Positions 6,501-59,922 of a stretch of 64,000 nucleotides of DNA are shown here, in pieces; within the stretch, counting starts at the first letter, position 1, and every line of letters starts with the position of its first letter. Under the pieces are notes generated by a model, which searched no databases, was not told where the DNA came from, and saw only the letters and a program-made list of their open reading frames with translations. The stretch comes from Rhizaria sp. SCN 62-66 (lineage: Eukaryota). Where the stretch lies: NCBI GenBank assembly GCA_001724265.1, contig MEDY01000026.1, positions 1 to 64,000 on the forward strand. The letters are read 5' to 3'. The position numbers and the translations under genes are program-made.

Positions 6501-8122
6501 ACCGTGGCCGCCTCCGCCGCCGATGAGCCTTGAAACGCGCTGGCGTCGGGCGGCAACGAGCCTGTGAGCGCGCCGCCCTCGAAGGCAACGGCGGCGCAGA
6601 GCAAAGGCGCGTCGGGGGCGACCGTCACTGAGACGGAGTGACCGTGAGCAGACACCGTCGCGGCAGCGCCCCCACCGGCGCCAGCGGAAGAGTCGGCACT
6701 TGAATCAGGGTCAGAGAGAGGGGGTTGGCTCTCGTTGTTATGCCCGCGGCTGCGGTGACTATGCGCGCCATTCTCACCTTCACTGCCGCCGTGCCCGGGC
6801 TCTGAGTGACTGTGTGCAGAAGAGTGTTCGTGGTCGTCCTCATCGTGACCGGGAGCGTCATGATCGTGGCCATGGCCATGGCCATGGCCGTGATCGTGGC
6901 CGTGGCCGTGGGCAGCGCCGAGCTCTTGTCGCCACAGCCCGTCCCGACTCCACGCCACAGTGTCGATGACATTTTTAGGAACCATGACCTTCGCAGCCAT
7001 CCCTTGAGGATCACGCCTAACATCGTCTTTGTTCTTATTAGTGTTACTAGCCCCGAATAACCGCATTGCGCTGATCTTGCGCGCCTCTGCCGCGGCCAAG
7101 TTCGCACTGACAGCGGCATTAACCGCGCTCGCCGCGGCAGCAGGGCCGTAGCTGCTCACAGCTGCCTCAGCCGCGGCCGCCACCGCACCTGCCTCCGCCT
7201 CCGCCTCGACCGCAGCGGCTGTAGCGGCGACGGCGGGCATGTAGTAAACCGCGATCGCATCCGGTTGGCCGCAGCGGCGGCGGCGCAGCGGGCGCGCGCG
7301 CACGGGCGACTGCGCGCCCTTGGCCGCGGCCCAGGAGTCGAAGTTAGGCCGCGTCGACCAGGAGGTGGAGAGGTCGGCGAACGCGTTGAGAAGAGATGTA
7401 AACAAGGACGGATGATGACCGTTGTCAGTTGCTTCAGTGACAAAGTGGTACGTCTCCGCGTCAGTGTTCTCGTTGGGGAAAAGAGAGTCGTCGTCAGTAT
7501 CACCGTACAGTTCGATGTCATCTTCGCCATTTACAGCATCATTAGCATCGGTATTGTCGTTGTTTGGAGAGCGCAAACGGGGCCGCGGGTCACCGGCACA
7601 GGGCGCGTCGCAAGCCGAGGGCGCAATCGCGGTGGAAAACGCCGGGTCGGGCCCCGGGGCGGCGCCGCACACGCACGCGTTGCCGGCGTGAACACCGGCC
7701 CAGGGCAGCGCGAGCGCGGCACAGAAGCGGCCACAGCGCGCGAGCGTCAGCTGCGGCTGCGGGCCCGAGTGCGCGAGCGACAGCGGGAGCTGGTGGGGAA
7801 GCGCGGAAGGGTCGACGGAGAGACATGAACGAAAGAAGAGACGCGGGAGCGGTGTTGCCGTTGCTGTTGTCTTTGATGATGCAGCGAGGGTACTTGCTGA
7901 CTCCCACCAGGGCTTGGGAAGGGATACAGGAACGGGTGAGGCAAGTGACGCAAAGCTTAGAGTAAAACGCTCCGGGATAATTTCGCCAGAGTGTGCTTCA
8001 GCAAAATAAATCCATTGTGTAAGCAGGAGCACAGCGAATGCGAATGCTCCGAACAAGTTGCAATGGTTGGATGGTGCGGGCGCGGAAACGGGCTACTGTG
8101 AGGAGTGATTTGACACCGCCAT
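589..8122 (-). CDS. Large type I membrane protein (~2,443 aa): N-terminal hydrophobic segment, WSC carbohydrate-binding domain, His-rich tract, possible TPR-like helical region, C-terminal TM helix; 3 exons, two in-frame TAG
   Basis: Exons 8122-6450, 6347-2028 and 1927-589 with phase-consistent GT-AG introns (6449-6348, 2027-1928). ATG at 8122 is in frame with ORF 6395..8056 across TAG 8095-8093. ORF 5873..6370 continues in frame across TAG 5875-5873 into ORF 2006..5842. WSC-type Cys pattern: C..LTLARCGRFC..WAGVHAGNACVCG..CDAPCAGD..CG..AIAVY. TM segment LGALIWALGLLAAMLAAAVGMCMW followed by RARK. Ends TGA. Confidence 0.75.
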
Positions 8123-14482: not shown

Positions 14483-17400
14483 TTGCTGGCTGTGACCGAG
14501 ACCGAGACTGGTGGTGTTGTGGCTATGGCTGCGGCTGTGGAGCAGGTCCGGAGGGGCGTTGATGAAGGGGTCGTTGCTCGTGCCGATGTTTTTGTTGTTC
14601 ACAACCACAGTCGGGTAAGAAGACATCTCCGGGAACTGACCCTGCTGATACTGTAGCTGCTGTAGCTGCTGTTGTTGCTGGAGTTGTTGTTGATGCTGCT
14701 GTTGCTGCTGTTGAATCATGAGCAGCCGCTGCTGTTGCTGCTGCTGTTGTTGCTGCAGCAACACCATCTCGTGCTGCTGGCTCTGTTCATGCTGCCGCTG
14801 TATCAGCAGCAGCTGCTGCTGTTGCGCCTCGGCCACCGCGGCCTCGGGCGGGTACACTGTGGTGCGTTCCCAACCCGGCCCCGCCTTGGACACCGGCAGC
14901 GTGCGCGCCAAACTGCTGCCACCATCAACGCCAAGCTGGTGCTGCTGAGACTGAGGCTGAGGCTAAGGCTGAGCTTGCTGTTGCTGCTGAAGATGCGACT
15001 GCTGCATTTGATAGTTGTGCTGCATGTGCTGCTGTTGCGCGCACGCCATCGAGACGTCCTCAGACAGCGCTAGGTGCGGCGCAGACCGGCGCTCGATCAC
15101 CAGCTCCATGCGCATCGAGTTGCTGACCTCCTTGGGCGTCAGGTACACGGGCGTCGGCGCTGGCAGCGCAACGGGCGGAGTTAGGAACGCGCACGTGATC
15201 TCAACAAGCCCCGAGATGAGGCGTTGCATGCGCATCAGCATCGCCGGCGACGGCGCCGCGCCGGGCGGCAGCAGACTGGAGAAGAGGTCGTTCACGTCAA
15301 CGGCCGTCGGCGGAGCTGACTCGGCCGCCACAACGCCGTCGGGGCCCGCGAGGTCGAGCACGTTGTTGGCGTCCGCATCGTCCGCGGAGGCAGTGGCGGC
15401 GGCTGTGGCGTCCATGGCGATGTCGGAGGCCGTGCGGTGCATTGGACCGGAGGTACGCTCGGCGGCGTCCGCTGCTGACAGAGCGGCGGGAGCGCGGGAG
15501 TCGCCGTCGTCCATCGCGATCAGGGCAGTGCCGGCGCCGTTAGCGGCCGCGGAGAGCCCTGCTGAGGCGATAGCGGCGACGTCGGCGGCGCTGAGGCCGT
15601 TTTCATCGCGCGTGACCGCGTTTGAGGCAGAACCGCCGCCGTTGCGCACAGTCGCGTTAGTGATACTCTGATACCCGTGACTCGCGCTTGCGGTGCCGGC
15701 GCAGGTGAGAGGCACAAGGCGGTTGTCGCTGCTTGCGGTTCCGCGTCCCGCGGTATCTTTGCTGCCCAGGAGCGTGATCATCGCACGCTGCGCCGCGCCG
15801 CCGCCGTTGTTGACCGCAGAGCCCGCAGTCACGGCGCCGCTAGCCCCAGAGCCCGCGCCGGCACTGCGACTGCGGCTGTGGCCGGTTGGCGGGAGGCTGC
15901 CCGTGTCGATGACGATGCCGGGCACGGTCGCCGCCGCGGCCTTGGTGACCGCGGCGACGACCATGAGAGCATACGTGCGTGCGTAGGCCTCGGCCTCGGC
16001 CGCCGAGATGAGCGGCTCCGGCGGCTCTGCGGCGGCCGCGGCGGCGGCGTCCACTGCGGCGACCGCGGCCGCCGTCAGCGCCGCCGGAGAGCTCGGGTCA
16101 GCCGCTCCGGCCGCGGACGGCGACGGGGCCAGCGCGGAGGCCGCGATCGCCGCAGTGAACGCGCTGCTGCTGCTGCTGCTGTTTCTGCTGCTATTGCTGC
16201 CGCCTGAGGAGCCGGCGTCGGCGTCGTCAGGGGAGGCGTTGGCGGCGGCTGCTGCTGCTGCTGCTGCGGCGGCGGCGACAGTGCTCTTCTGGTAGCGCAC
16301 CGTCTCGTACAACACCTTGACCGCCTTGGTGCCGACCGCTGTGCCCACTGCGGTGCCAGCGGCGGCGCCAGCGGCGGCTGCGGCGACAGTGCAGGGGTTC
16401 AGCACCACGGCGCCGCCGCTGGACTGGGGCCGACTGCCGCTGGAGGGCTCCGCCTTGACGCGCGCACCGAAGCCAGCTGACGCTGAGCCTGACGCTGAGC
16501 CAGAGCCAGAGGCGGAGGCGGAGCTAGAGCCGTGTGCGGCGATGGGGGTGATGTCGGCGCTGGCGACCGTGGGCAGCGGGAGCTGCGTCAGCGCGTCACC
16601 GACACTGCTGTCGCCGCCGGAGCTCGGGCCAGAGCCCGTGCCAGAGCCAGAGCCAGTGCCAGCGCCAGAGTGACCATGAGCAAGACGACTGCGCTTTGCT
16701 TCGCGAGTCAGCACATCGGCCTCAGCGGCATCGGCCTCACCGTGACCCTCACGGTCACCGTTGCCGTTGCCGTTGGCACTGTGACCGAGAGACGAAGCGC
16801 TGGGACTCGCGGTGGAGACTGGTGACGTAATGAACGCAGCAACGGCGGCCGCGGCCGCTGACAGGGGGTTCTTGCTGTTGCCGCTGCCACTGCCACCGCC
16901 GCTGCTGTTGCTGTTGCTGGCAGCAGTCTTGCTAGCGGCGCTGACGCCAGTCGCGAGCGAGAGTGCGGCCACGCGCGGCGACGACACAGGTTCAGTTTTA
17001 ACGTGCACGCCACCAGCGCCCGCGCTGTCGTCGTCGCCCAGCGCAGTCGCATCGGCGTTCGTCTCCGCGTCGTCTGAGGCGTTGGCGCCAATGCTGGTGT
17101 TGCTCTGCGCAAGCTTCTCCTGCATTCGCAGTAAAACCTGCCTGATGACGGCAAGCGAGCGCGACTGCTCGGCCTGGTCGGAGCTCCGCAGCAGCGCCAG
17201 CAGCTCGCGCACTTGTGCGGCGGAAGGCATACCGGCGCGGGCGCATTCCTGCTCACATTTCTCGCGGTCACGCTCATCGACATTTTCACTTGCACTCGCG
17301 CTGGCGCTGGCGCTTGTGTTGTCGGCCTCAGTCTTGGAAGCAGTCTCAGTCGCACCCGCGCTCGCGCCACTGGAGCCGCTGCCACAGCTTTCATTGCCGC

Positions 17401-22391: not shown

Positions 22392-22669
22392 AAACACAAA
22401 GATTAACGAGTTAAATTCCGGCCTGCAACGTAAATATACCGAGTATGCTCCGGTAGACAGAGATATCGACATGAAAACAACCTCGCCACGAACCCCAAAC
22501 CCCGTTCGTGGTCGATCGGAGCCAGTCGCTTAACAGCGGTTCGCAAAAAATCAGAGCGACCATCATCGCTAAGACTTGTCACACTGTGCTGTGACTTATA
22601 ACTTCCGTCAATAGCGACCTCGTCTCATATTCAAAATTACATTGCATTTGTCTTCTATATACTCTTCAG

Positions 22670-31851: not shown

Positions 31852-32407
31852 TGTTGTGAGATGCACGTCGAGCTTTGCGACTGTGTACGAGGGTGGATTA
31901 GGCGGACAACGTCCAGAGTTAGACGAGTCAAACGGAAGGAGACTTTGAGGGAAGACTTTGATGGGAAGATTACGTTTTTGAGGAATTTAATTTTAAAAAT
32001 AGGCTATAGACTAAGAAATATCATATATAACTATACTCATATCTCTAATGACGGTCGCCGTGGTTCTGTGTGCATCATTCCGTTTCAAATGCAATCCAAC
32101 CTGATTGGAGTAGCAACGGCTCTGCCACATACACACAAACATGTACGCAAGGAGCTAAAGGGCGTCTGGTTCAGCCAAATATAGAAATTCAACTCTACAA
32201 TCACAATATTTTCTATAACACAACATTTGAAACAATAAAGCACTGCAACGCTTTTCGATACCTTCATTGAGGTGATGTATCAAACAATTTCGTACGATTA
32301 CAAATCTAGATTTGTATGACCACAAGCAAAGCTGCTTGTGAGTTAATACCATATATAAACGAGTGACTAGATAAATTATAGATGCGGTTTTCTCTAACGA
32401 AAGTTCA

Positions 32408-35400
32408 TTATGTGATAGAAATAACGCCCTTGTCGGCCATAATCCTCCTTCCATGCCCCAGTGCAACTCCCCTATTATCAGAGTGCCTGTTGCTGTTGTT
32501 GCTGGTAGTAGTGTTCTTGTCGGTGCGGCCCGTCGCAGTCTCCCAGACGCCCGCCACAACCATCCACACGCACATCGCCGCGTTGGCCAGCGCCACCGCT
32601 GCCACGGCCACGGCCACCCTGCTCCGGCCGCGCGTGACGCCTCCAGAGGAGTGGCCGTGAGCAGCATGCGTTCCACCAGCATGCGTACCGTGCGCGGAGT
32701 GCTCGACCGCGAACACAGCCAGTGCGGTCCACGCCACCAGCGTCATCACGGCTGGCAGCAGCCAGCACGCCGTGAAGCGCGCCCCGCGGCCCACAGCGGC
32801 GACTGCGCGCTTGACCCGCGTCTTGCCCTCACTATGGCCGTGACCGCGGGGGACTGTGGGCAGCTTGGGGAAGAGCGCGCACACGGCTGCAACGTCGACG
32901 GCCGCGGCAACGGTCAACAGAGCGACCGTGAGCAGGACGGACATCGCACCGACGACACGGCCACCGGCAGTCGACTTAGACTCGGGCTGCTGTTGCTGTT
33001 GCTGCTGCTGTTGCTGCTGTTGAGACTGTGTCGGTGCAGGCATGATGATGTGCTTCAGTGCACGCACTGCCCGCGCAACCGCGGCTTGACTTTGCGTGCG
33101 CAACCGCGACTGCGATTGTGTCAGCGCATCCGTCTGCGTTGGCGTTTGCGAGAGCGATTGTGAGAACAATTGCGGCGTGACGGCGGCGGCGAGGCTGTGC
33201 AGCGTCTGCGCAAGATCCGAGTCCGCGGCCACGGCAGCGGCGACCCCGCGCACAGTTTCGATCGCGTGGCTCAGCAGCGCGGACAGGTCACGCGCAGCCA
33301 GCCCCGCGCCGCCGCCACTGGCAGCAACGGCGGCGCCGGTCTCAGCGGCGTCGGATTCGGCGGCGGTGTGATTGCGACTAGCCGAGCGAGCGAGCGCGTC
33401 AGTGTCAACATCGACAACATCGTCGTCGGCGTGATCACCGTGAGTGTGAGCGAGGAGCTCTCCAGCCTTGCTCAGCGCCTCCGTCGCACCCGTCTCGTAC
33501 CCGCTGGCGTACGCGGCGGCCACCGCGGCCGCCGCCTCCGCCTCCGCCGCAGTCGCGTTGCCCGCGCCGTGCTCCCTCGCTTCTTCCGCGGCGCGCTGCA
33601 CCGCAGCAGCCACGGCGGACGCGAGCGCGGTCTCAGCGGCCGCGGTCGCCTCAGCCTGCGTAGCCGCGGCCTCGGCCTTGGCGGCGGCCACCGCAGCAGA
33701 CACTGCAGCGGCGGACGCGGCTTCAGCGGCCTTAAGCTCGGCGTCGCAGCTGTGAGCAGCTGGCTCGAGCTCGGCGATTGCACACTCGGGACAAGTGACC
33801 GTGGGTACCTCAGGGCAGGCGACTGCGGGCACCTCAGGGCAGGCAACAGGCTCAGCGCAAGCGACGGGCTCAGGGCAAGAGAGAGGCCCGGCGCAGGCCA
33901 CAGGTTCAGGACATGTGATTGGCTCAGGACAGGTGACGGGCTCGGGGCATACGACAGCGTGCGGACAAGCGACGGGAGGACACGTGACTGGAGGGCATGC
34001 GACCGGAGGAGGACACGTGGCTGCAGGTGGACAGCGGCATTCAGCGCTCGCGCTCGATTCCACACTCTCACTCGCACGAGAGTCAGCGTTGAACGACTGC
34101 GTAAGCCCGAGACTAAATGGGCTGCGCACGGGACACGTACCCTCACGCGCACCATACCGCGCCACTGACTGCGCTACAGCCTGCGATAAGTCAGACTTCG
34201 CGCATGACTGAGGACATGACGGCGACTGCGGCTGAGAGACCGTCTTGCTCAAGTCGCTGACCTTAGCCTCACACGCCTCCGCCGCCGCCTCCGCCGCGGC
34301 CTCTGCAGCGGCCGCGCTGGCAGCATACGCATCGGCCGCCGCCGCGGCGTCTGCCCGAGCGGCGTCGAGCGCGCTCTGCACGGCCTCGAGCCCCGCTTTG
34401 ACCGATGCAAGCTCGGCCTCCGCGGTCGCGCACCCGTCCCGAGCAGCGTCAGACCCAGACTGGGCGTTCTCGCACTCGGTCTTCGCGGTCAGCGTGTCGG
34501 CCTTCGCGGCGTCGGCGTCCGCCACGGCCGCTGCGGCCTCAGCCTTCGCGGCCTCGGCCTCGAGCTTCGCCGCGTCACGCGCCGTCCTGGCGGCCTCAGC
34601 CTCGAGTTTGGCGACGGCGGCCTCGGCTGCGGCCGTGTCTGCGAGCCGTGCGATTTCGTCGACTGCGGCAGCGGCGGTGCTTGCGGCCGCCGTGGCCGTC
34701 GCCGCAGTCTCGGTGAGCTCGGCGAGAGAGCGCGCGCTCACTGTCACCCAGTCCCCGCGCATCAAAGCCTGAGACGGTGAGTGCGGTCGCGACTGCGAGC
34801 GTGAGTCGGACCCTGCAACAACGCAGGTGCACGGTGCGGGCTCAGGGCAAGGAACGGACTGCGTCGGCTCAGCGCACGGTGCACACTCCGCACACTGTAC
34901 GGGCTCGGCGCACTGTACGGGCTCGGCGCACTGTGTCGGCGCAGGGCATGGCACTGGCTCAGGACACTCAGCGCAGCTAACGGGCTCAGCGCACGGTGCG
35001 CACTCGGCGCAAAGAGCTGCAGATGCGGGGCAGGCGACACTGGGCTGCCACAGGGACTGCGGGCGCCCAGTGTCCAGGTCTGCAGTCAAAGCAGCGGCGG
35101 CGGCGGCCGTGACGGCAGTGAACAGCGACGCTTGCTCCGCACCTGTCACAGTCGCTGAGTCAGACTCGACGCAGTGAGGGCAGACAGAGCAGTCGCAGCG
35201 ACACACGCTGTCATCCACCTTCGCAGCCGCGGCCGCGAGACGGAGATCGCAGTCAGCGGTGATATCGCCAACCTTGCGCTGACAGTCGTTGGCGGCGTCG
35301 GCGGCCTCGCGCGCGCACTTAGCGGCGCTGGCCTCGGCCTTGAGCCCCCAGGCGCGCTCGCAGTCGCCGACCTTCTGCGTGTACTCGCGCTCCCGGTCAC

Positions 35401-37585
35401 TCGCAGCGCTCTCAGCAGCGCGCGCACACTCATCGCGCGCAGCCTCAGCGGCTGCTGCGGCGGCGTCGGCAGCGGCGGCAGAGTGAGCGCACGGCGCGAA
35501 CGCGGAGTCGAAGTACTTTTCGCCCGACTGTGAGCCCCAGAGTGAGGCGGACAGCGCCGTCACTGCGGTCACTACGGGCCCCGGCAGAGCGCGCGCCAGG
35601 AGCTGCGGCTTAACTTCCGTCACCGCGGCACCGGAAGAGCTCGAGGTCGCGCGAGAGCCCGTGGCCGCAGCAGGCCCGCAGGTGTAGACACTGGGCGCGG
35701 CAGAGAGACTGACCAGCACTGCGCCACCAAGCAGCAGTGGCAGCAACAGCAGCGGCAGCAGTAGCGATGAGCGAGGCGACGATTGCGCAGTAGTGACACC
35801 CTTAGGGGCCACCACGGGGACCTGCGACTGGGCAGCAAGCAGAGCGGCAGCGGCGGCCTCAGCCTTTGCCCTGAGAGCAACAGCCTCAGCCTTGGCGGCG
35901 TCAGCTTCACTCTTCGCTGCGGCGGCCTCAGCCTTGGCAGCAGTGGCCTCAGCCTTGGCAGCAGCAGCCTCGGCCTTTGCGGCCGCAGTCTCAGCTGCAG
36001 TCGCAGTCCGCGCCTCGGCGTCCGCATGCAAAGCCTCCGCCTTAGCCGCCGCCGCCTCCGCCTTCGCAGTCGCCGCCTCAGCCATTGCGGCAGCGGCTTC
36101 AGCCTTTGCAGCGGCTGCCTCGGCCTCGGCCCTCGTCGCGCGCTCCACAGCAACCTCAACATGCATTTCCGCCGCCGCCACATTCGCATTCGCGGCTGCC
36201 TGAGCCCCCACTAGCGCCGCGGCCTCCTGCTGGCCGGCCACCGCGCGCGCCCCCGCGGCCGCGGCCTCGGTCTGCGCCTGCACGAGGTCTGCCCTCAGCG
36301 CACCCACGGTCGTTTCCAGCGCGCCCACGGTCACTTCGAGCGTGCGCACAGTCGCCTGCAGCGCGGGCGCGGCGGCGGCGTCGGCGCGCGCGGTTGCCAG
36401 AGACGTCTCCAGCCTACCGCGCTCTGCGCGGTGCTCGCGGTCGAGCTCGGCCCGGTCGCGCGAGAGCTGCTGCTGCAGCGCAGCGACCGTGGCCGTGGTG
36501 GCCGCGAGCTCGCGCTCGAGCTGGCGCGCTCGCAGGGCCGCGGTCGCGGCGGCGGCGGCGGCCGTCGCGGCGGCGGTGCGCGCGGAGGCAATTTCGCGGT
36601 CCAGAGAACGCTCGGCGGTCACCGCGGCACGGGCGCGCGCACTGGCCAGCAAGCTACTGTTCGCAGCTGTCATCGTAGTCGTCGTCGACGGCGTGGCGTG
36701 GAGTGTGCTCTGCTGCTGCTGTTGCTGTTGCTGCTGCGTGGTGTCGGGGAGAGAGCCTGAGCGTGAGTCTTGCGGCGTTGCGGGCGCTGACTGCAGCTGG
36801 GCCATGGCAGCCAGCAGCCGGCCCGCGTTGGCGTTGACGCTGGCGCGAAGGTTCTCACTGAGATTGCCCTGCACCTGCGACTGCTGTTGCTGCTGAGCGA
36901 GACTGCTCCTGCTACTATACACGCCTTCGACACCGTGACTAGCCGCATTCTCGCCCGCAGCCGCATCTGCTGTGTGATTGTCGCTCGCGCTGCCAGCTCC
37001 AGACGGAACGCCGTCTGGCGCGAGGAGCGAGGTGACTGTGGGCAGACCATCGACGGAAGACGCGTCAGACCGCAGCGACTGCGACATAGCCAACTTTTGC
37101 TGTTGCGATGCAAATAGAGACTGTGAACACGACTCTGACTCAGGCCCGAGCCCCGAGGCAGACGCAGACGCAGAGGCCGACATTGCAAGTGCTGCGCGCT
37201 CCTCAGCCTCGGCCAGCGCAAGCTGCAGACCCTGCACCTGCGCCTGCGCGGCCAGCGCTGTGGCCTCTTTCTCAGCCACTGCCGCGGCCGCCGCGGCCTC
37301 GGCAGCCTTGCTGGCCGCCTCCGCCGCACCCGCCCGCGCCTCGGCGCGCGCCGCGGCGGCCTGCGCGGCGTCGCACCGCTGCTCACGGTCACTGAGCTCC
37401 AGCGCGGCGCGGTCGCGGTCTGCGCGCGCGTCGAGGGCATCGCACATTGCGCGCTCGGTCGCCGCGGCGGTGAGGGAGAGAGTGCCCTCAAGTTCCCGGA
37501 CACGGCGAGACAGGGCGCTGTGCTCCGCAGCCAAGTCGACAGGCGCGGTGGGCGCGGACTCAGCGCTAGCGGCATTCTGGTCCTC

Positions 37586-37629
<44 letters not shown>

Positions 37630-40600
37630 GTTGTTGCTGCTGGAGACTGAGGGCCTCGTAAGCGGCGTGGAGCGCCGCATACTGGCGGTGCAGCTCAGTC
37701 AGCTGACTGTGAGCCGCGGCGCCCTGGCTGTGCATGGCGCCGTACTGCTCGTGCAGCGCAGCGTACTGCGCAGTGACTTCGCTGTCGTGGCTGTGCAGTG
37801 CAGCGTACTGACTCTGCAGCGCGCTGCGCTCAGTCTCCAGCGCGTTCTGATCGGTCTGCAGCGCACTGTGCTTGCTCTGCAGTGCGGCGAGCTCAGTCTG
37901 CAGCGCGAGATGCCCCGTCTCCAGCGTTGTGCACTGCGCCTGGAGGGACTCGCACTTCGAGGCAAGAGTCGTACACAGAGTTTGCAGAGTTTCGCACTGC
38001 TCCTGCAGCGGTTGGCTAAACGCATTCCCGTCGCTCTTGCTCGCGTCACTACTTGACTGCTGTTGCTGCGCCGTCTTCTGCAGCTCTGCGAGTGTGTTCC
38101 TGAGTCTGTTGCTCTCAGCGCGTTCTTGCCCTGCCTCCGCGCACACAGCGGCCAAGGCCTGGTGCAGCTCGGTGAACTCTGCTCCGAGCGTGGCATACGC
38201 GCCGCGGAGCGTCTCAGCCTCGCTGCGCACGCTCGCAAGCTCTGCGGTGACCGCGGCGAGCGCGGCTGTCTTGGCCTCAAGCTCGGCAGCCGCGTCCGAA
38301 CTGACTTGCTGTTGCTCCAGCTGTTGTTGCAGCTGTTGCAGCGCGGCGCCCAGAGCGTTGTGCTCTGTTGCGAGGACGGCGAGGTGGCCCACGGCGGTAT
38401 CGCGCTCAACAGCAACGCGCTCACAGTCACTGCGCAGCTGTTCACAGTCGCCGTGGAGAGTATCGCGTTGCGCAGTGAGATCGGCGCACACCGCGGTGAG
38501 CTGTTGGCATCCTGTGGTGGCGGCGTCGAGCTGTGCAATAAACAGATCGCGCTCAGCAGAAACGCTACCGCGCTCCAGAATGGCGTTATCACGCTCAGCA
38601 GCGAGCGCAACGCGTTGCGTCGCCTCGCTATCACGCTCTGTGACAGCAGCATTGCGGGCGGCAACTGCAGCGTCGCACTCAGCCACACTGCAATTGCGCT
38701 CCGTCACCGCGCCATCGCGCTCTGTGATCGCATGGTCCCGCTCCGCAACAGCGCGGTCCCGGTCAGCAACAACACGCTCGCACTCTGCGACAGCGCGGTC
38801 ACGGTCAGCAAGAGCGCGGTCCCGGTCAGCCACAGCTCGGTTGCGCTCGAGTGCAAATGCATCGCGCTGCGCAGCCACGGCGTCGCGCTCGGCCAGGATC
38901 GCGGCGCGCTCTTTCAGCGCGCGCGCACGGTCCACTAGAGCCGCCGCGCTCGCAGCGGTGCTCGCGCGGGCCTCGGCGTGGGTCGGGCTGACCGGAGCCG
39001 CGGTCGACTGCGGCTGCTGTTGCTGTTGTTGTTGCTGGTGGTGGTCGAGTGTGAGGGCATCGTTGGCCTGGGTAAGAGCCTCAACGGACTGGCTAAGGGC
39101 TTCGTTGGCGGCGGAGAGCGCGGCCTTGGACTCGGCCGCCGCGATAAGCTCGAACTCAAGGGCCTCCTTGTCGCATGTCAGGGCATGCTGCGAGGATGTA
39201 AGAGCCTCGTTCGCGGCCAACAGCGAATGCGTCGTCGCCGCAAGCGCCTCTTTCTCGGTGTTGAGCACGCGTGTCTCTCCTTCTAGCGCTTCGTTGGCAG
39301 ATGTAAGGGCCTCAACGCGGGATGTAAGTACCTCGATCTGCGACGTAAGTGCCCCGTTGTCAGCAGTCAGCGCTGCCACAGTCTGCTCCAGCGCCAACAT
39401 ACGCTCACGGTCAGTGTTGGCACTGGCACTATCACGGCCCTCACGCTCGCGCTCACGGTCACTCGACGTGAGGTAAGCCGCCTCGCGCTCAGCGCGCTCC
39501 GCGCGGGCCACAGCGTCGGCAGTCTGGCTCTGCGCCTGCAGCACTAACGCTTGCGCCTGCTGATGCAACAACGACATCTGTTGACGCGCTTCTTCCCGCA
39601 CTTGCTGTTGCGCCAGCGCTGTCTCAGCGCGCGCGGCCTCGGCCTCGGCGGCAAGCACACTGCAGCGCTCGGAAAGCACCGCCACGGCGGCCGCGGCGTC
39701 ACCCTGCAGCTGCGTCAACTGCGTGCGCACTGCGAGGAAGTTTAGCCGCATCGTCTCGAACTCGCCGCTGCTCACAGCCGCCGCCTCAGCAGTCGTCGCT
39801 TCGGCGGGCGCTGTGGCGTCGCGCACTGGCTCGGCCGGATGACTCTCAGTCGCAGTCGCTGATGCAGCTACCGGCACGGGCGACACCGCGCCCTTCACCG
39901 CATCAGACATGGAATGGCCATTGTTGCTGTTGTCTGGGCGACTCGAGACGACACCAGTCCCGCTAGCGGCGGCGGCGGCGGCGGCGGCAGCGCGGCGACG
40001 TTGGTGCTTGAGCTGAGCCCTCTCCAGCAGCGACAACGGCGGCAACCTGCCGCTGCCGCTGCCACTGCCGCTGCTGGCGCCACTGATGTCGCTGCTGTGG
40101 GGACTCGAGTGACTCTGGGCGCCGTCACCGCGGTTCACTGGGCTGTACGGGGACACGGGGGCCGACGCGGTCGCAGTGGCAGAGCCCGCGTGTTGTTTTC
40201 CAGGTACCGCCGTCGCCGTGTCGCCGTTGTCGGTGTTGTTTGTCGCCGCAGGCGAGTGAGTCTGTGACTGGGAGGCAGACGAGCGCGCGCGCGCGTTTGC
40301 GTGCGCGGGAGTCTCATATGCACCTTTCCCGCCGTCTAAGGGGTACCTAGATGGGTTCGCGGCGATGTCAACGACACCCCAGCGCGACAATTCAGCGTCA
40401 CCGGCGGTATCGTTGTGATTGTTTTTAGTATCATCGGCGCCAGGTGAGTAACGGACGTGCAGCGGGGACGGACCCCCCCAGTTCTGCACATTCCCTCCAT
40501 GAGCACTTGCACTCGCGCTTGCGGCTGCGTCACCCTTGCGGTCCACACTCTCAGGAATGTGAGTGCCTTGCCCCTCGTAAATGCCCTGGTATCCGTCAGT

Positions 40601-43048
40601 GTACACCTCGGGCAAGTGGAACTTCACCGTGGGACTGGACGCGGCCGAGTCACCCAGTAACCGCCGCCATGCCTCCCGCATTTGCATTTGCGTCGTCGGT
40701 GTCGTCGCAGCGAGCCCACTAACAGCAGCCGCGGGCGCGGGTGCGGGCTCGGACTCGGGCAGAGCCGAGCGTGTTGTGACCGTGGCCACCGCGGCGGTGG
40801 CAGAAGCGGCTGATTGCGACGACACCGACTCACCGGCCGTGCCGCTGCTGCTGGGCGCCGTGGCGGCAGGCTTGGCGGGAGTGCCTGCTGCTGTGCTGTA
40901 GGCGTTGGCGGAGGCGAGCAGAGCCCGCAGCCCTGCAAATGCTGCTGCGTCCTGTTCGCTGTCAGCGCCAAAAGCAAGCGCATCTGCATCGATCTCAGCC
41001 CCGGTCTCGGTGTCAGCGCCAGCATCAGCACCGTGGGGTGCAGCAGCATGCGGTGACGTCGTCCCACCCTCTGAGACGTCATGCTCCGCTTTGGCCTGCT
41101 GCTGCTGCTGCTGTTGTTGCTGTTGGAGCTGCTGTTGTTGTAACTGCTGGAACTTGCGCCAGAGCCGCATACGGCGCCGGCCCCTGCGGAGCGCGCCGCG
41201 GACCACCGAGCCCAGCGCGGCCGCCGACGGTGCGCGCGAGCCCAGGGGACTGTCGGTCGCCGCCGCCGCCGCCACCGGCCCAGCACCAGCGCCAGCGCCA
41301 GCGCCAGAGCCCGCGCCGGCGACAGCGCCAGAGCCAGCGCCGGGGGCCGGGGTCCGACTGTGACGATGCGTGTGCGTGTTAGCGTGAGCTGCGGCTGAGT
41401 GGCCGTGGCCGTGGCCGTGGGCGGTGGGTGTGTGCGACTGGGACGACAGCGAGCTATCAAGGCTGCCATCATTGCTCTCGCCGCTATCGCGACTCGTGTT
41501 CAGAGCCTGCGTGCGCATGCGCTGGCCGTCGCTGTCAGTCTCGTCGCTGCTGCCACGGCTATCTAGCCGCTGCCGCTGCTGCTGCTGCTGTTGCAGCTGC
41601 ACGTGACTGTGAGCGTAAACCGACTGCGCATGCGCGCGCGGCAGCGACTGCGGGCCGAGTGACCGAGAGCCGACCGAGACAACTGACCGCGTGTCCTGCG
41701 GTGATTGGGGGTAGTACGCCGACGGCGGACGCGTCGTCGCCGCTCCGACAGCGGCAGAGGCCACCGCGCTTGCCGCAGCGTCGGAAGCATTGCCGTCCGA
41801 GTCAGCATAGCTGAAGCCGTACCCGTGGTGCACCTCAGCAGCAGCGGCAGGAACACCAACGCCGATATCCTTGTTCTTGGTGATGCTTTGGTCGTCGCTC
41901 GCGTCAGGACCGCGAGATGAGCCTGCTGCCTCAGCTTCGGCCTCCAACGACGCAGCAACGGCCGCGAACGACGACAGCGGAGCGCTGCCAGCGTTGGCGT
42001 CAGCACGTGTACTGCTGCTATCGCGATCTCCAGCACGAGTACTGTCAATCGCGTTGTTGGTGTCACTATGGTCGTTTTTGTTTGCAGCAGGAGCAGAGCT
42101 CTTGGCCCTAGCAGCGGCTAAGTGCGCCGTGAACGAAGACAGGAACGCCACCGCGACTGGCGACCTGGGGGTGTCACGGCCACGGTCGCCGCTAGTGCTG
42201 ATAGGCGCAGCAACAGAGCCACTGCCACTGCCAGGACCCGCGCCAGCAATAGCGCCAGCGCCAGTGTCCAGGACTGGAGTGAACGGCGAGCCGAAGGGGG
42301 ACGTGCGGACGGCTGTCCCGCTAGTGTCACTGTGCCGCGCCATGCTGGCGTTGCCGTGCCGCAGCATGGGCGTTGTGTGACTGAACGAGACGTGTGCCTG
42401 CCGCGGCTGTTGCGTGCGTGACTGAGCTTGCAACCGCGATTGAGGCTGCGTCTGCGAGAGAGACTGTGTTTGTGACAGCGACGACTGCTGCGGCTGCTGC
42501 TGAGTCTGCGAGGAGTGGGACTGCGTCACAGACAGCGACTGTGCTTGTTGTAAGTGCGCTTGTAGAGAGTGCGAACGCAGCCACGATGCCGACAGCAGCG
42601 GCCTCTGGTACGCAGCCGCGCTCAGTGACGACGTTTCCTGCGAGTGCAAGCGCGAGTGCAACGGCCTCTGATGCGCAGCGCTGCGTGAGCCGACATCGTG
42701 CGCCCCAGAAACCGCCGAGGTTGTACCGCCGCTGTTGCTATTGCTGTTGTTGGCGTAGACTGAGACGTGCGCGGGCGACACCGGCCGCGAGCGCGCGGGG
42801 GCCGGGGACGAAAACACAGCGCTCTCGTCCTCTGCAGACGGAGCGAAGGTGGCGAACGCGGGGCTGGTGATGCGCGCGCGGTCCGCGGGCGTGGAAAAAA
42901 CGCGGTCCGCCGATGCAGTGGTTGCTGCGGCAGCGCATGGAGACGTCGCGGGGCGCTGTGAGGGCGGCGGCGGCGACGGAGGAGGCGGCGGGCCGTAGTG
43001 GGCGACGCCGACTGCAGCGGCTGTCGGGGGACCCGGGGGAGAGGACAT
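32408..43048 (-). CDS. Giant single-exon coiled-coil membrane protein (~3,546 aa) with internal TM segment, Cys-Pro repeats and about 3 C-terminal TM segments; one in-frame TAG
   Basis: ORF 37616..43048 and ORF 32408..37534 are in the same frame, separated only by TAG 37618-37616 inside a CAG/CAA tract. Long heptad regions; hydrophobic LLLPLLLLPLLLGGAVLVSL near 35705-35770; hydrophobic segments near 32560-32950. Ends TAA. Confidence 0.8.
33781..34040 (-). repeat. Coding Cys-Pro tandem repeats (CPEPVT/CPPVA, 5-8 aa units)
   Basis: Translation CPPAATCPPPVACPPVTCPPVACPHAVVCPEPVTCPEPITCPEPVACAGPLSCPEPVACAEPVACPEVPAVACPEVPTVTCPEC. A second block (CAEPVQ, with a perfect 18-nt duplication) lies at about 34820-35035. 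Confidence 0.9.
35860..36130 (-). repeat. Coding 21-nt heptad repeat (AAAKAEA)n
   Basis: Translation EAEAAAAKAEAAAAMAEAATAKAEAAAAKAEA...AAAKAEAAAAKAEATAAKAEAAAAKSEADAAKAEA. Confidence 0.85.
38575..38900 (-). repeat. Coding 21-nt heptad repeat (ERDRAVA-like)n forming coiled coil
   Basis: Translation ERDAVAAQRDAFALERNRAVADRDRALADRDRAVAECERVVADRDRAVAERDHAITERDGAVTERNCSVAECDAAVAARNAAVTERD. Confidence 0.85.
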
Positions 43049-43822: not shown

Positions 43823-45518
43823 TTAGAGCTCATCGCGGGGCATCTTGCCGTCCCACTTCTGCGTCTTGGCGATCGCAGGCAGCTTGCTGACCGAGATGAC
43901 GCTCTCGCGGCCCGAAACGAGGCGGTCGACGAAGGAGCTGATGCCATCGGCGCTGAACGAGCCCAGCATAGGCGCGAACTTGCCCTTGGCGACGTTGACA
44001 GCCGCCAGCGCCGGGTACCCCGCGCCGCCGACCTCGAGCGCCTGCTCCAGCGCGCTCTGCCGGTTGCCCTGCGCCCAGACCCAGCCGACCGAAGAGCGCT
44101 TGAGCTTGGCGGCGGCCTTGGTAAGCTCGGCGATGTACCCGTTGCGGCCCTCGATGCCAGAGTCGAGCACGTTGGGCAGGAACGCGACGACGCAGAGCGT
44201 CTTCTCCGCGCAGCCGTCGAACGTGGACTGGTCGACCAGCTCCACGGGGGTCGGCGCGGGCGTGTGCTTGTCGGCTTCATTGCTCACGTAGGTCACGATG
44301 TCACTCGCCGTGCGGCCGCCGTTGTAGTCGGAGGGCTTGCGCTTGTCGCCGTAGCCGAAGACCTTGACGGTGGGGTAGCCGCGGACGTCGTACTTCTGGC
44401 ACAGCGACTGGTGCTGCGTGCAGTCGACGTTCGCGAGGTGCGCGGTGCGGCCCTTAAGCTGGCGAGCAGCCTGTTAGCGGTTAGAGAAGAGGAAAGTACG
44501 AATAACAGAGACAGAGACGATATGTAAAGTGAGGTGTTGACGGATATGGGCGTTTTAGAAAATAATTTCGTAAATTATCACTATACAGGAAGTACATGAA
44601 CACTATATAGCCCCAATAGTTTCTTAAAGCAAGACTAAGACGTGTGTTTTGATGAGTTGTAGCAGTTGTAGCAGTGCGTACCTGCGAGTACTCGGGCTTG
44701 AGGCGCTGGCAGTGGCCGCACCAGGGCGCCGTGAACGACACAAGCCAGAAATCCTTGGAGTTCATCACCTTGCTGTTGAAGTCGCTCTCGGTGAGCTCGA
44801 TGACGGAGCCCGAACCAGCATTGGAGGAGCCAGCGCCGTTGTTGCTGCCGTTGCTCGAGCCGGAGTCCTTAGACTTGGAGCTGGAGCTGGAGCTCGAGGC
44901 GGAGGAGCCGGAGGTCTTGCCGGTGAGGCGGCCGGAGACAATGCTGCGCGCCTCGCGGAGGGCGGCGTCGGCGAGGCCCTTAGCGTTGCGCTCGCCGTTG
45001 TAGTCGGCAGGGCTCTTCTTGTTGGCGCCGAAAACCTTGATCGTGGGGAAGCCCTTGACCTAAGCAAGAAGAGATACCAAGACAAAGAGAATCGATTTAA
45101 GGATTGAGCGTGAGAATCAGGATACAGCTAATAGGATTCAATACAGGAGTCTCCATGTAATTCGCCAGACGTGGATATCATGAGACATATCGTTGATTTC
45201 GGGAGTATTCGGATGACGAACCTGGAAGCGGGAGGCCAGCGCCTCGGCCTGGGTGGCGTCAACAGCGCCGACCTTGACGATGCCCTTAAGCACGGAAGCA
45301 GCCTTCTTGTACTCGGGCGCAAGCGATACGCAGTGGCCGCACCAGGGCGCGAAGAACTCGACGATCCACGGGTCAGGGGAGTTCGCGACGAGGGAGTCGA
45401 AGTTGGCGGCCGTGAGCTGCACGACGTCGTCGCCGGAAGTGTACAGCGCGTGGGCCGCGCCGGCGAGGAGGAACACGACCGCAAGGGACGCAATGCGGAG
45501 GGCGCGGGAGAACAACAT
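43823..45518 (-). CDS. PDIA6: Protein disulfide isomerase, P5/PDIA6 type (~440 aa; 3 exons)
   Basis: Exons 45518-45222, 45059-44682 and 44470-43823. Signal peptide followed by LYTSGDDVVQL; two APWCGHC thioredoxin sites; GFPTIK and GYPTVK; a non-catalytic b domain; ER-retention RDEL then TAA. Confidence 0.93.
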
Positions 45519-46165
45519 GCGCGCGGGGATGCTGGTTCTGCAGAGGGGATGAAGCAAAAAAAATAAGTGCCGAAAGAGGCGTGTGAGTGTGACTGGAAAG
45601 ACGGTGAGAGAATGTGCGAGTTTGCGAGCGGGCGCCTCAAAAAAATAAGGGTGAAAACAAAAAGGCAAGTAGCTCGGGGTTCGTAAGCACGCAGTTGCAG
45701 CGTGATCGCGGTTTGAGGCGCGGCGCTGGTAGAAAGTGAATGTGCATAGGCGGTGTGCTGACGTAAGCACAGCGACCGCAAACATGCCAATCAGAGCGAG
45801 TTACGGCGCAAGAGCGCGTATAACAATTGTCAAGCAATGTAAGCGCGCACATGTTCCGGTCGAAAAAGATTAATACTTGACAGCGAACGATCGATATCGG
45901 CCCTAATCACGATCGAGAAGTGGTCGTCTTCGCGATCAAATCTGTCCCGACAACTAAAAATTGTTTTTCATTTTTTGCGAACCTACTAGAGTTCGGAGCT
46001 TCCACCACCAACTTGTTTCGCTCATTTTGAGAACGCATATCTCGATACAATGACCGTCAAGCGAGATCCTGCGATCTTTTCTCGAAAGTGTCACCACTTG
46101 ACAATACTCACAATTCTTAACGCTTGAACAGCCGCGCGTTACACCTACATCCGCCCGAAACTCCG

Positions 46166-47871: not shown

Positions 47872-50800
47872 ATGGATGTTTCTGCGACCGCAAAGGCTCT
47901 CCAGGCCGATGTGTTGCGTCTTATAACCCCACATGTTAACCCCGAGACACGCGCATTCATCGCCACCTTGCGCCGCGCTGTGCGCACAGTCGAGCTCGTG
48001 CCGGCAGATATCATCGCCACCGCACCTAGCGTTTTTTCGCTTCCGCGTGCGCCGTCTCTTAAGGATCTCTCGTCATCCAACTCCACGCTGCGCAGGGCTA
48101 ACCTGGCGCGTTTGGCGGCGTACGCGAGCATTTCCGTGCACTTGCACGAGTACATTGACGACGTCTGCTGCCGTCACTACTGGCCCACAGGCGACGGCTT
48201 TTGGGCCGAGAGTGACAACGACGGCGGCGGTGAGATTGTTGCCGAATTCGCGTTGCCTTCGGACAACCACGAAGAAAATAACGACAAAAACATTGACGAG
48301 GGCGATGGCCAGGAGGATGAGGACGGCAACGACGAGAACAATGCGAACGGTGATGTTGACGGCGACAACGCCACAGAGAAGAGCTCAGCAGAGGCCAATC
48401 CTGAAGGTGAGAAGGCAAAGGAGGCCACCGCGTCTGATGCTGATGAGGGTTCCGATCCCGATGTTAGCACTGAAGCTACGCCTGCTGCAAACGTTGCGTC
48501 GGATGATGGTGACGGCGACACCAAGAGTGGTAACGACTCTGCGGACGCTGTTGCTGAGGATCTCACTGCTGACCTTGCGTCAACGCTTGAACACCGCGCC
48601 AACACAGCCTTGAAGGGCGGCAATGTCCGCCGTTTCTCGTAGCTGATGTTTCGCCACTGCTTCACCGCATGCTTTGAGCCCTATTTCCCCAGCAGCGGCA
48701 GCGAACACAGTACTGCTGCTTTGTGCACATGCGGTCTCAACTTCTGCGACTCATCCTCATCCTCGTCCTCATCCTTGGACTTGGAGTCGGAGTCAGAACC
48801 ATCGGAGCCGCGCCAGACTCTGTCTTCGGTGCTGCTGCCGCTGCTGTACAGCCCGTCGCGCACCGACGCCGCGCTAGCCGCGATCGCGCTACACGGCATC
48901 CTGCGCGCCGCGCCCACGCTCGACGCGCGCGCGGGGCTAGCCAACGGCATCGCACAGGAGCTGCTCAACGTGCTAATTGCGGTTCCCGTGGCGGCGAACC
49001 CGATCCTGGTTGACCACGCCGCGCGCGCGCTGCGGTACAGTCTCGAGAGCAGCACGTTAGCACATCTCACCGTCTTCGCGTGGCAGAGTCCTGTGCAGCT
49101 CATGTTCGACATGATGCTGGAGGAGAACTGCACCCAGGGCGGAGTTGAGACAACGTACGTGGCGCCAGAGGGCGGGTACTACAAGGGCGCAGAGGACACT
49201 GGCGACGGCGCACGGTGGCGGTCACCGCATGACGAGAAAATCCCGCTGTTTCCGAGCTCGTTTGACAATTGCTACGAGATCGAGCTTCTCGGCTGCATTA
49301 AGACGGCGCTTACGGCGATTCCGTGTTTTAGCAGCACTGGCGGCTGCGACAATGCGTCCGGCTCGTTTGCATCTTCTTCCGACACGTTTGCGTTCGACCT
49401 GTTCAGCAAGGCTGTCGGGTCCCTGCTCAGCGTGGTGACGGAGTCGATTGAGTGCATGAGCTCGCAGATTGACATCATGCCGCTTTTGCTCGAGCAGGGC
49501 GCTATTAGTACTCATTACGCGATGACGCGCTGTGCTGCACTGTTTCTCGAGATCGCACCGCTAATTCCGTCTCTTTTTCACGCCCTCGTTGGCACGGATG
49601 TGTACGCATATGCATCTACAACGGACGATAAGAACACCAATGCAAGTGAAAGTCGCACTGGCAAGAGTGCTGGCGCTGTGACTCTGAGCAAAGAAAAGGC
49701 AATCGAGCGTCTGCGTTGCGTGACGAAGCTTATTCGCCAACCGATCCGAGTCCTGAACAATTATTCGTCCAACCTTGGCATGAGCATGCCCTACGAGAGG
49801 CCGTACCACATCGACAGTCTTGCTTACGGCCAGCGCGACAACCGCGCCCCGTGGGCTGTGTTTCCGGACATGGAGCCCGCGTGGCGTGCGCGCCTTCAGG
49901 CCGCCGTGGCCGCGGTCAAGCGCGGGCTGCCGCGCGCGATTGCGGCGCAGCTGACCGCGGTGCAGCGCGAGGCGACGCAGACTCTTGCGGACCACGAGGC
50001 CGCCGTCGCAGCGTATAACAAGCGCAAGGCGAAGCAGGCGGTTGCTGCGCAAGACGGCGACGATAGCGACGACACTGATCACGAGACCGCGGAAGATGGT
50101 GCTGGGACTGATGATGATGACGACAGTTTAAGCGGATATGGGCTGTTTGACGATGATGAGTCGCTGCATGACGACAGCAGCGAGAATGGCGACAGCAGTG
50201 GCTTCTCAGCTGAGAAAGTGATAGATGACTACACTGCGCGCATGGCACACGAGGCTACGCAAGAAGCTGACGCGCCCCCCGCGAGCCCGCTTCTCCACCT
50301 CATTTTCGAGTCGTCGGGCGCTCTCCTTGCCTCGTTCCTGCCGCTGGCAGAGCTGTTGCCGCGCTCGGAGTATGGCTTCTTTGTGCGCGACTATGTTATT
50401 GGCAGCGAGATTTACACCGCCTTAGAGGTCTCTGCCCCCGGTGATCCGAACTGCTTTTTCATGCGCCGCGCAGCTGTGACACGCGGCATGCTGTCGCTGG
50501 TGTCACGCCTCGCGTCTCCGCGCATGCTGTCCATGGGCACCACGGTCATGGCCAAGGCGTTGCTGTTCGTGGACGCTGTTGCGAGCAGCGGTGCTCTGTA
50601 TCCGGCAGTGCGTGGCCCGCTGAAGGGCGACGACGCCCGTGCGCTGCGTGTGTGGACCAAAGATGGCGGGCCCATGTCCAAGGGGCAGGTGCAGGCTGTC
50701 CGGTTCTTTTCTCCTCCCACAAACGATCGGGAGGCGCGCGAAGGAACACAAGGGACCGAAGCGATGCTTGTCTCACTGCTTTCGTATGAGAAACTGCCCG

Positions 50801-51306
50801 CCAACGCTAAGCGGAAAAATGTTAGCAACAATAGTGGCTTGACTGGTGATGCTGTCGCAAACGCAATGATGCCTCCACCGCATCCAACAGAGCTGCTGCG
50901 TTGCAATGTGATTCGTATCGTGGGGCGCTCGATATCACACGACTTCTCGCCGAGCGCAGTGCCTGGCCTCGAGGCTCTTCCGCGCTTTGTGCGATGCGGG
51001 CTTCTCAACGTGCTCGCGAACACGTTGCCGACTATGCCACTGCGGTTGCGGCTTGCAGTGGCCGCGCTGGTGCCTGTGATTGCCGCCGAGTTCCTCGCGT
51101 GGGATATGAACATTGAGTCATTCACACCGTATCAGCGGCGGTGGATGCAGCAGTATGTTGGCGAACCGCTGATCTCGATGTACAGCGACGAGGCCTTTAA
51201 AACCCTTGTTGAGGTGCAGTGGAAAGTTTCGGTGATGGCAGCCTCGGGCATCGATGTCGATATGTTCGTAAAACCCTTGGTTGAGATCGCCGATATGGTG
51301 AACTAA
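47872..51306 (+). CDS. Hypothetical protein (~1,144 aa), helical/ARM-like with acidic inserts; one in-frame TAG
   Basis: ORF 47806..48642 (first ATG 47872) and ORF 48646..51306 are in the same frame, separated only by TAG 48640-48642 and CTG. Amphipathic helical segments; no family recognised. Ends TAA. Confidence 0.65.
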
Positions 51307-51643
51307 ATTCGTATTTGTTGTGGTATAATAATTGTTTCTGTGGACGTATGAGTCAGTACCGTTTGTTTCTTCAGGTTTATAGTGTTTTTTTTTTCATCCC
51401 GTCGTTCATGCCTAAGCAACACGTTTTACTTGCTCTTTGAGCAACTGTACAGTACAACGAAATGTGAAACGAATACATGTTGTGTATATTTCGAATTAAA
51501 CAATAATTGCGATAGAAGTTGAGGTCAAGAGTACCGCCGATACAATCCATTAGACTCACAGAAACTTAAGAAGACTTTACTGATAACTTTCGAAAAAGAC
51601 TGACAATACTGAACTGCTCTTCCATCATCTATCAGTCCTTCGC

Positions 51644-54158: not shown

Positions 54159-54189
<31 letters not shown>

Positions 54190-59677: not shown

Positions 59678-59922
59678 CACAGCCTATTCGGTTGAAATAA
59701 CAATTTGTAAATAATAGGTTGTTAGCAATGCTTAAATATATGAGCAGTCAAGTTGCAGTCCTGAACAACGATCGTGTGTCGAGGTAGTCTTGGTTCAAGA
59801 TGTTGAATTCGTGGATTTTTGTTTGTGGCCGAGGAGCCACCCCGCCCCGGCGCGAAGTCTATCACTCGTCACTATGAGATGTATACATTGTTTGAGTTAG
59901 TATAATTTCGCGCACAGGCAAA

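Follow-up and report, generated by a model that had tools for sequence, protein, structure and literature searches.

The code type in which UAG specifies glutamine is catalogued as NCBI table 15. In the nuclear code of Iotanema spirale, UAG is described as glutamine and UAA and UGA as stops (Panek et al. 2017, PMC5304391; PMC9161772), and the pairing of UAG as glutamine with UAA as a stop is also described for Protocruzia tuzeti and two phyllopharyngean ciliate lineages (McGowan et al. 2024, PMC11687900). Here we examine a 64,000-nucleotide stretch of eukaryotic DNA (contig MEDY01000026.1, positions 1 to 64,000, assembly GCA_001724265.1, deposited as Rhizaria sp. SCN 62-66; hereafter the window), in which a giant gene, gene A, carries a TAG codon in frame within a polyglutamine (polyQ) tract. 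The source eukaryote probably decodes UAG as glutamine and keeps UAA and UGA as stops.

The window resembles I. spirale in having UAG as a probable sense codon with glutamine as the inferred residue, UAA as the main terminator, and an apparently non-ciliate eukaryote as its source (PMC5304391). It differs in that UAG makes up ~8% of glutamine codons there and ~0.5% here, and in that the I. spirale assignment, as its report sets it out, draws on many conserved alignment columns and a change in the GTS motif of eRF1, whereas ours draws on context and reading frames (PMC5304391). The ciliate lineages have both the codon change proposed for the window and the same retained stops (PMC11687900); the window, by contrast, gives no hint of a ciliate source, and has 63% GC over 64 kb, spliceosomal introns of 102 and 129 nucleotides (nt), and a SKI2 protein that falls near a rhizarian in a tree without ciliates. 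A further group of codes, of the table 6 type, assigns both UAA and UAG (UAR) to glutamine and is described for many ciliates, Hexamita, Streblomastix, ulvophytes and Amoeboaphelidium protococcarum (PMC5304391, PMC11687900, PMC6299283). UAG has the same meaning in these codes as in the reading proposed here, but UAA is also glutamine and UGA is the sole stop, whereas TAA ends at least six genes in the window; Amoeboaphelidium genomes, moreover, are listed at ~40% GC (PMC10608142, Table 1) as against 63% in the window, and this genus was rejected as the source on that ground. Other meanings of UAG on record are leucine, in some ciliates (PMC11687900) and in one rhizarian, the uncultured exLh (PMC5304391), and serine, in a green alga. 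As proposed for the window, exLh reassigns UAG alone and keeps UAA, and the SKI2 tree hints weakly that the window has a rhizarian affinity. The literature searched, as far as its accessible text extends, contains no GC-rich non-ciliate lineage with UAG alone reassigned to glutamine besides Iotanema, which does not imply that the code of the source organism is unpublished. UAG as glutamine with UAA as a stop is an already known kind of code, and the source organism would be a new case of it if it is unreported there.

An in-frame TAG in the polyglutamine tract of gene A

Gene A lies on the minus strand at 32408..43048, where a coding sequence of 3,546 codons runs from ATG 43048 to TAA 32410-32408, with a TGA adjoining at 32407-32405. 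The TAG at 37616..37618 (-), proposed here to encode glutamine, is in frame and would be residue 1811 of the 3,546-amino-acid product. It is embedded in a 19-codon polyQ tract (37586..37642, -) made up of eight CAG or CAA codons, the TAG and ten further CAG or CAA codons; read on the minus strand, these are two CAG, two CAA and four CAG before the TAG, and six CAG, two CAA, one CAG and one CAA after it, with GAG GAC following. The TAG has CAG as its neighbour on both the 5' and the 3' side, the base at +4 is C, and the local context is QQQQQQ-TAG-QQQQQQ. An initial annotation of this DNA had described a TAG inside a polyQ tract joining two open reading frames (ORFs), and the minus-strand sequence bears this out at 37618-37616. 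Its codon string was right in the TAG and its CAG/CAA surroundings and miscounted the CAG codons that follow, giving seven where there are six, and the span that it assigned, 37601-37645, takes in part of the tract and misses its full extent.

The two ORFs flanking the TAG are long. The upstream one (37616..43048) begins at an ATG and encodes 1,810 amino acids; the downstream one (32408..37534) encodes 1,708 amino acids from a TTG and comprises 1,735 codons from stop to stop. Reading through the TAG from ATG to TAA gives the 3,546 amino acids of gene A, and the ORF sizes and the total of ~3,546 amino acids reported initially hold. The downstream ORF was also said to lack an ATG at its start, which is correct in that it begins with TTG 37534, though an in-frame ATG does occur at 37447, 57 codons past the TAG. 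A run of 1,735 open codons following a true stop has P ~3e-17 on base composition alone. GC content at third codon positions (GC3) is 0.80 before the TAG and 0.81 after it, and a codon-usage score trained on the stop-free ORFs of the window (12,834 codons, GC3 0.73) gives 0.32 upstream and 0.26 downstream; the 100 codons past the TAG contain no in-frame stop. The site lacks an AT-rich spacer, and GC remains at 0.66-0.74 across it.

The product of gene A is rich in alanine, serine and glutamine and has long helical regions, six polyQ runs and Cys-Pro repeats at residues 2707-3069. Its four hydrophobic segments (2427-2452, 3364-3394, 3430-3448 and 3478-3501) are all C-terminal to the TAG, and a stop at that codon would therefore sever the helical rod from the predicted membrane anchors. 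In a single-sequence AlphaFold2 model of 400 amino acids across the TAG (mean pLDDT, the predicted local distance difference test, 78), a helix (65-212) runs through the polyQ tract, which is modelled as the end of this long helix with the TAG as residue 201; a low-confidence linker (214-226) and a further helix (229-353) follow. A coiled coil had been proposed on both sides of the TAG, and the model supports that proposal as far as predicted helicity on either side, and no further. Pfam gave no significant family for gene A, the few matches all being under the curated cut-off or within 0.2 bits of it, and the protein database search returned no homologue of like length, its one match being of low complexity and limited to 2% of the query. 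With the TAG as a sense codon, gene A is therefore, in our judgement, most probably a single protein of 3,546 amino acids, in which a helical N-terminal half is joined through polyQ to a C-terminal half with predicted membrane segments.

TAG interrupts coding frames and is absent from gene ends

At least four long coding frames in the window are intact but for a TAG, a codon absent from gene ends, where TAA and TGA terminate. Besides the TAG of gene A, a second in-frame TAG (14963..14965, -) lies in gene B within a (CAG CCT)n repeat, in the context CAG CCT TAG CCT CAG CCT; the frame is open for 2,035 codons upstream of it and for 1,455 downstream. A third (5873..5875, -) falls in exon 2 of a WSC-domain gene, in the context EQQQ-TAG-QQQQ, and the nearest ATG that follows in frame is 284 codons away. 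The fourth (48640..48642, +) interrupts gene D (ATG 47872 to TAA 51306) in the non-repetitive context RRFS-TAG-LMFRHC. Under the standard code only two ORFs of at least 500 codons end in TAG (at 37616 and 14963), and both stay open in frame, for 1,735 and 1,455 codons. Five coding-scored ORFs have a TAG end; all four on the sense strand lead directly into another coding ORF, and the fifth, on the plus strand within the span of gene A, is read as a non-coding antisense frame. Past all four TAGs, GC3 is 0.66-0.81 and no in-frame stop occurs over 100 codons.

Several genes thus carry an in-frame UAG, with four solid sites (37618-, 14965-, 5875- and 48640+) and one ambiguous one. The ambiguous TAG (8093..8095, -; CAG TAG CCC) lies near the start of the WSC-domain gene, between nearby in-frame ATGs (8143, 8134 and 8122) and the start of the WSC ORF, which resembles a signal peptide; the first in-frame ATG of that ORF itself is at 7240, 285 codons downstream and beyond the WSC domain. 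Here the minus strand is pyrimidine-rich (...CTCCTCACAGTAG), and because the TAG can equally be read as a 3' splice site it was left out of the count. On this basis TAG accounts for 4 of the 742 Gln-type codons in the window, or ~0.5%.

Gene ends were counted as the stops of coding-scored ORFs, and were taken as high-confidence where downstream GC was no more than 0.42. The eight high-confidence ends are TAA at 9481, 32410, 43825, 51304, 51646 and 61153 and TGA at 26150 and 47072. A further five, which are less secure, are TGA at 2008, 26646 and 60495 and TAA at 20342 and 63777. TAG is found at none of the eight and at none of the 13 in total, for which P = 0.020 and 0.0017 respectively in this small sample, given a TAG share of stops of 0.39 expected from composition only. 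The intronic TAA 6397 and TAA 10597, TAA 44483 and TGA 45140 (both inside the split PDIA6-like gene), TGA 27673 (10 nt past an AG|GTACGT and probably intronic) and the low-scoring ORF 589-2235 were left out of these counts. The DNA beyond the eight high-confidence ends has a GC of 0.35-0.42 and contains in-frame stops: several stops, at 0.35-0.42 GC, come after the six TAA ends, and GC is 0.36-0.38 past the TGA ends 26150 and 47072. Both codons therefore still terminate.

The plainest control is the TAA at 43823..43825 (-), which directly follows the ...KMPRDEL of a PDIA6-like protein. An xDEL ending is a typical endoplasmic reticulum retention signal. Since the protein ends in RDEL right before it, this TAA is a real terminator, and a code of the UAR = Gln type is therefore excluded; the bridging TAAs are intronic, as set out below, and the table 6 type was accordingly rejected for the window.

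Two further features of gene ends were observed. In the gene at 22595-26152 (+), a polyQ run (QQQQQQQQQQQLQR, 26100-26152) lies three residues before the stop, so that a real gene end has a glutamine run beside it, and there the stop is TGA, not TAG. Separately, an in-frame TGA comes soon after the terminal TAA in three genes, a small sample: directly in gene A (32405-32410, -), four codons on in SKI2 (51632-51646, -) and 15 codons on in gene D (51304-51351, +). Back-up stops of this kind have reportedly been discussed in one study for organisms with reassigned stops.

For comparison with the four TAGs, we assembled all stops in six frames with at least 100 open codons on each side (n = 62), most of which are antisense to the giant genes. 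A plain codon-score filter is too weak alone, because frames antisense to such large GC-rich genes also stay open over long distances, and was replaced by the requirement that a stop lie in the dominant frame at its locus, which left eight. The four TAGs have positive coding scores and a local GC of 0.51-0.57. Coding scores are negative for TAG 45130 and TGA 21073; TGA 21986 is in a non-coding, pyrimidine-rich stretch, and TAA 6397 lies in a 102-nt intron (6449-6348, -; GTACGT...TATTAG) with a local GC of 0.29. TAA 10597, the apparent end of gene B, is likewise within an intron, of 129 nt (10603-10475, -), with GTACGT, a CACTAAC branch-like motif and TTTAG. No TAA was found within the exons of the window, both bridging TAAs (6397 and 10597) being intronic, and no exonic in-frame TGA was found. 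TAA and TGA therefore bridge coding ORFs solely through introns or non-coding DNA, whereas TAG, unlike either, bridges ORFs within GC-rich coding sequence. An intron reading of the four TAGs themselves was rejected: no GTAnGT lies within 60 nt of any of them, and the sequences read contain no GT...AG of usable length.

Homologues extend across the TAG of gene D. When gene D with its TAG as glutamine (P0043) was searched against 1.84 billion representative proteins, its two halves were found stored as separate entries, P0045 ending at the TAG and P0044 beginning two codons past it, and besides these five proteins matched at E <=0.001. P0046, P0047, P0049 and P0050 are homologues of the region 3' of the TAG. 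P0046 (725 amino acids) matches gene D at residues 31-190 (E 1e-05) and 345-707 (E 2e-18), on either side of the TAG at residue 281, and P0049 also opens with the N-terminal region of gene D, although this match is weak. In an alignment of four sequences, three residues just before the TAG (V276, R278 and F279) do not vary, and three of the four sequences have H-C-[F/Y] after it. Given P0046 and these conserved blocks on both sides of the TAG, the two gene D ORFs are therefore one gene in relatives. The fifth protein, P0048 (457 amino acids), matches gene D at residues 88-136 only; it consists of seven tandem copies of ~65 amino acids, each resembling that segment (37% identity). Two scans of a prokaryote genome collection confirmed none of 16 pattern matches for the gene D family and none of 155 for RPA1, and so yielded no relatives.

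The residue at UAG and competing explanations

If UAG is translated, its residue is almost certainly glutamine, as judged from context. Glutamine is expected from the local repeat at three of the four solid sites, most plainly in the Gln-Pro repeat at 14965-, where TAG replaces CAG in a hexanucleotide repeat. Among 737 ordinary Gln codons in ten genes, 37% have at least two glutamines among their four nearest neighbours, compared with at most 4.4% for any other residue; three of the four TAGs do. The resulting context likelihood ratio favours glutamine by ~400 over histidine, ~900 over leucine and ~8,000 over glutamate. Leucine, the residue assigned to UAG in exLh, was rejected for the window on these grounds, three of the four TAGs being in Gln-repeat context and the leucine likelihood at the TAG sites being 1.1e-3 of that for glutamine. 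The initial annotation had regarded the gene A TAG as a synonymous CAG>TAG change within one protein. Support for this is strong but indirect, and comes from the continuity of frame, GC3 and coding score, three more such TAGs, the absence of TAG from all 13 gene ends, a homologue spanning another TAG and the ~400-fold contextual preference for glutamine. By analogy with other lineages in which UAG has passed to glutamine, a tRNA-Gln with anticodon CUA would read UAG, and eRF1 would no longer recognise it.

Several observations weigh against reassignment. Four or five codons in 64 kb carry the whole claim, and no in-frame TAG coincides with a conserved Gln column. Only the gene D TAG can be aligned, and its column is Arg in all three homologues; adjacent columns are unconserved, and the column therefore says nothing firm about residue identity. 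A TAG count of 4 in 742 is far under the ~8% given for I. spirale (PMC5304391), and Euthynema mutabile, which uses the standard code, is reported to have TAG at 4% of gene ends (PMC9161772). All four TAGs have C as the +4 base, a termination-weakening context that fits leaky readthrough too. Finally, the 64-kb window contains no tRNA genes and no Rfam families, and does not encode eRF1.

At ~0.5% of Gln-type codons, the rarity of TAG suggests that the reassignment is young or weakly used. An elaboration of this, which we regard as unlikely though worth stating, is that the window captures a very early stage of the passage of UAG to glutamine, in a GC-rich non-ciliate lineage possibly near Rhizaria, with UAG partly read by a near-cognate tRNA-Gln that competes with eRF1. 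This possibility is raised because UAG has gone from gene ends yet makes up ~0.5% of Gln codons, occurs chiefly within Gln repeats and has C as its next base at every site.

The CAA-UAG-CAA context of tobacco mosaic virus is leaky, and the serious rival to reassignment is that the code is standard and the TAGs are leaky, a near-cognate tRNA-Gln(CUG) reading them at a low to moderate rate so that each gene would yield a truncated and some full-length product, either as tolerated nonsense or as programmed readthrough. We consider this improbable. In Saccharomyces cerevisiae, a Gln-flanked, C-followed UAG is read as glutamine, and Q-stop-Q with C at +4 in Gln-rich mRNAs is reported to give glutamine insertion and ~2-7% full-length product (PMC13192750, a 2026 preprint); in the window the +4 base is likewise C at every site, Q-stop-Q occurs at two of the four, and a TAG share of 0.5% would also fit codons that are merely tolerated. 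In yeast, however, efficiency is a few percent and UAG is still a terminator (PMC13192750), whereas here two sites, P-TAG-P and S-TAG-L, lack Q-stop-Q, and the standard code does not predict the absence of TAG from all 13 gene ends. The contexts are, moreover, ordinary for Gln codons: in window genes 50% of these are C-followed and 23% are Gln-flanked on both sides, and the TAG contexts are therefore not significantly unusual (P = 0.064 for C at +4 and 0.22 for Q-stop-Q). A few percent of full-length output would be hard to sustain for 4 of ~13 genes, and readthrough efficient enough to be harmless would effectively be a reassignment.

The remaining alternatives fare worse. Genuine nonsense mutations, in recent pseudogenes or in strain- or haplotype-specific alleles, are easily generated, as CAG to TAG is one transition and CAG is plentiful in these genes; that all four stops are TAG (P = 0.16-0.21 under a random model) does not discriminate. 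We nevertheless hold this to be very unlikely, since it requires four large genes in 64 kb to bear one lesion each, followed by 887-1,735 intact codons with no frameshift or second stop, and at least three of the four sites to fall in Gln context (P = 7e-4 to 1.5e-2, depending on transition bias); the portion of gene D 3' of its TAG is also conserved in distant homologues, and the absence of TAG from gene ends is left without a reason. That absence is equally unexplained if the TAGs are sequencing, assembly or DNA-damage artefacts in which C was read as T at CAG. Cytosine deamination in CAG-rich genes would chiefly produce this change, but four independent errors in 16,000 codons, all TAG and never TAA or TGA, would be rare for a consensus assembly, and the protein database has gene D split at the same TAG (P0045/P0044), perhaps from the same assembly; little probability attaches to such an origin. 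It is barely credible that gene A is two adjacent genes, one ending at TAG 37616 and the next starting from ATG 37447 or a non-ATG start. Such an arrangement could draw on that ATG, on the ATG two codons after the TAG in gene D and on the separate database models of the gene D halves, but there is no spacer at the site (GC 0.66-0.74, compared with 0.35-0.42 past real ends), the polyQ tract and the predicted helix continue through the TAG, the same frame and zero spacing would be needed four times, and a single homologue (P0046) spans the gene D junction. U-to-C editing of the mRNA, restoring CAG prior to translation, would yield the same protein as reassignment, but nothing in the window supports it and TAG avoidance at gene ends would again go unexplained; we know of no general mechanism for site-specific U-to-C editing of nuclear mRNAs in protists, and deem it exceedingly improbable. 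Pyrrolysine and selenocysteine were set aside, the source being a eukaryote, the context being that of glutamine and UGA being uninvolved.

Gene content of the window and wider significance

The window has very long ORFs separated by AT-richer spacers. In addition to genes A, B and D, it encodes a DSHCT-domain helicase of the SKI2 type (51644-59683, -), an RPA1 without its N-terminal domain (61151-62542, -), a PDIA6-like protein in three ORFs (43823-45800, -), the WSC-domain protein, a PAC3-like protein and a WD40 protein. A trypanosomatid-type organisation was considered and rejected, as the strands are mixed and cis-spliced introns are present.

Introns account for the structure of several of these genes. 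The WSC-domain gene has exons at 8092-6450 and 6347-2006 (-), and its intron (6449-6348) fuses the WSC-domain ORF (6395-8092) with a 1,288-codon ORF (2006-5872) into one gene. The coding sequence of gene B runs from ~20008 to 9479 (-), and its intron (10603-10475) extends it into ORF 9479-10474. Taken from stop to stop, the ORF of gene B also covers the 3' end of the upstream gene 20340-21983, in a different frame (20008-21070, -), and the shared part resembles an Arg-rich translation out of frame; gene B probably starts at the ATG at 20008, after an AT-rich spacer. In the region 27527-27683 (-), an AG|GTACGT lies 10 nt before the TGA that apparently ends a 1,282-codon ORF (27671-31519), and candidate introns of 157 or 178 nt would link this ORF in frame to ORF 26644-27546; two more GTACGT motifs, at 31574 and 31805, lie upstream of the same gene. 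The three ORFs of the PDIA6-like gene are in different frames, implying two introns at roughly 45060-45210 and 44475-44660.

The SKI2 orthologue has 2,679 amino acids, with a low-complexity N-terminal extension of ~1,090 residues ahead of the helicase core, and its closest relatives, P0051 (2,253 amino acids) and P0054 (2,015 amino acids), are also unusually long. RPA1 has 454 amino acids in its database form and is without the PF04057 N-terminal domain carried by most matches; its nearest relative, P0005 (64% identity, 451 amino acids), has the same short form. RPA1 and SKI2 each have one relative at 64% identity, and named matches lie at ~36% for RPA1 and ~45-55% for SKI2. In a quick tree built from 30 SKI2 sequences, the window protein groups with two others (support 100), and this trio clusters next with a set that includes the rhizarian Spongospora (98) and falls outside both the fungi (99) and the oomycetes (100). 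The tree offers only a weak hint of rhizarian affinity, because the amino-acid composition of the query deviates from that of the alignment.

Gene prediction under the standard code splits the genes described here, rendering gene D as two proteins and gene A, by the same logic, as products of ~1,800 and ~1,700 amino acids. If UAG is glutamine in the source organism, its proteome needs re-annotation with a table in which TAG encodes glutamine. Nuclear codes that split the meanings of UAG and UAA are rare, and the reassignment, if true, would represent an independent case in a GC-rich non-ciliate and a data point on the uncoupling of the two codons. The rarity of TAG might then show an early stage of reassignment, and should that early-stage reading hold, the source organism would be a present-day example of stop-codon capture in progress, and its code, in which UAG and UAA differ in meaning, would have arisen independently.

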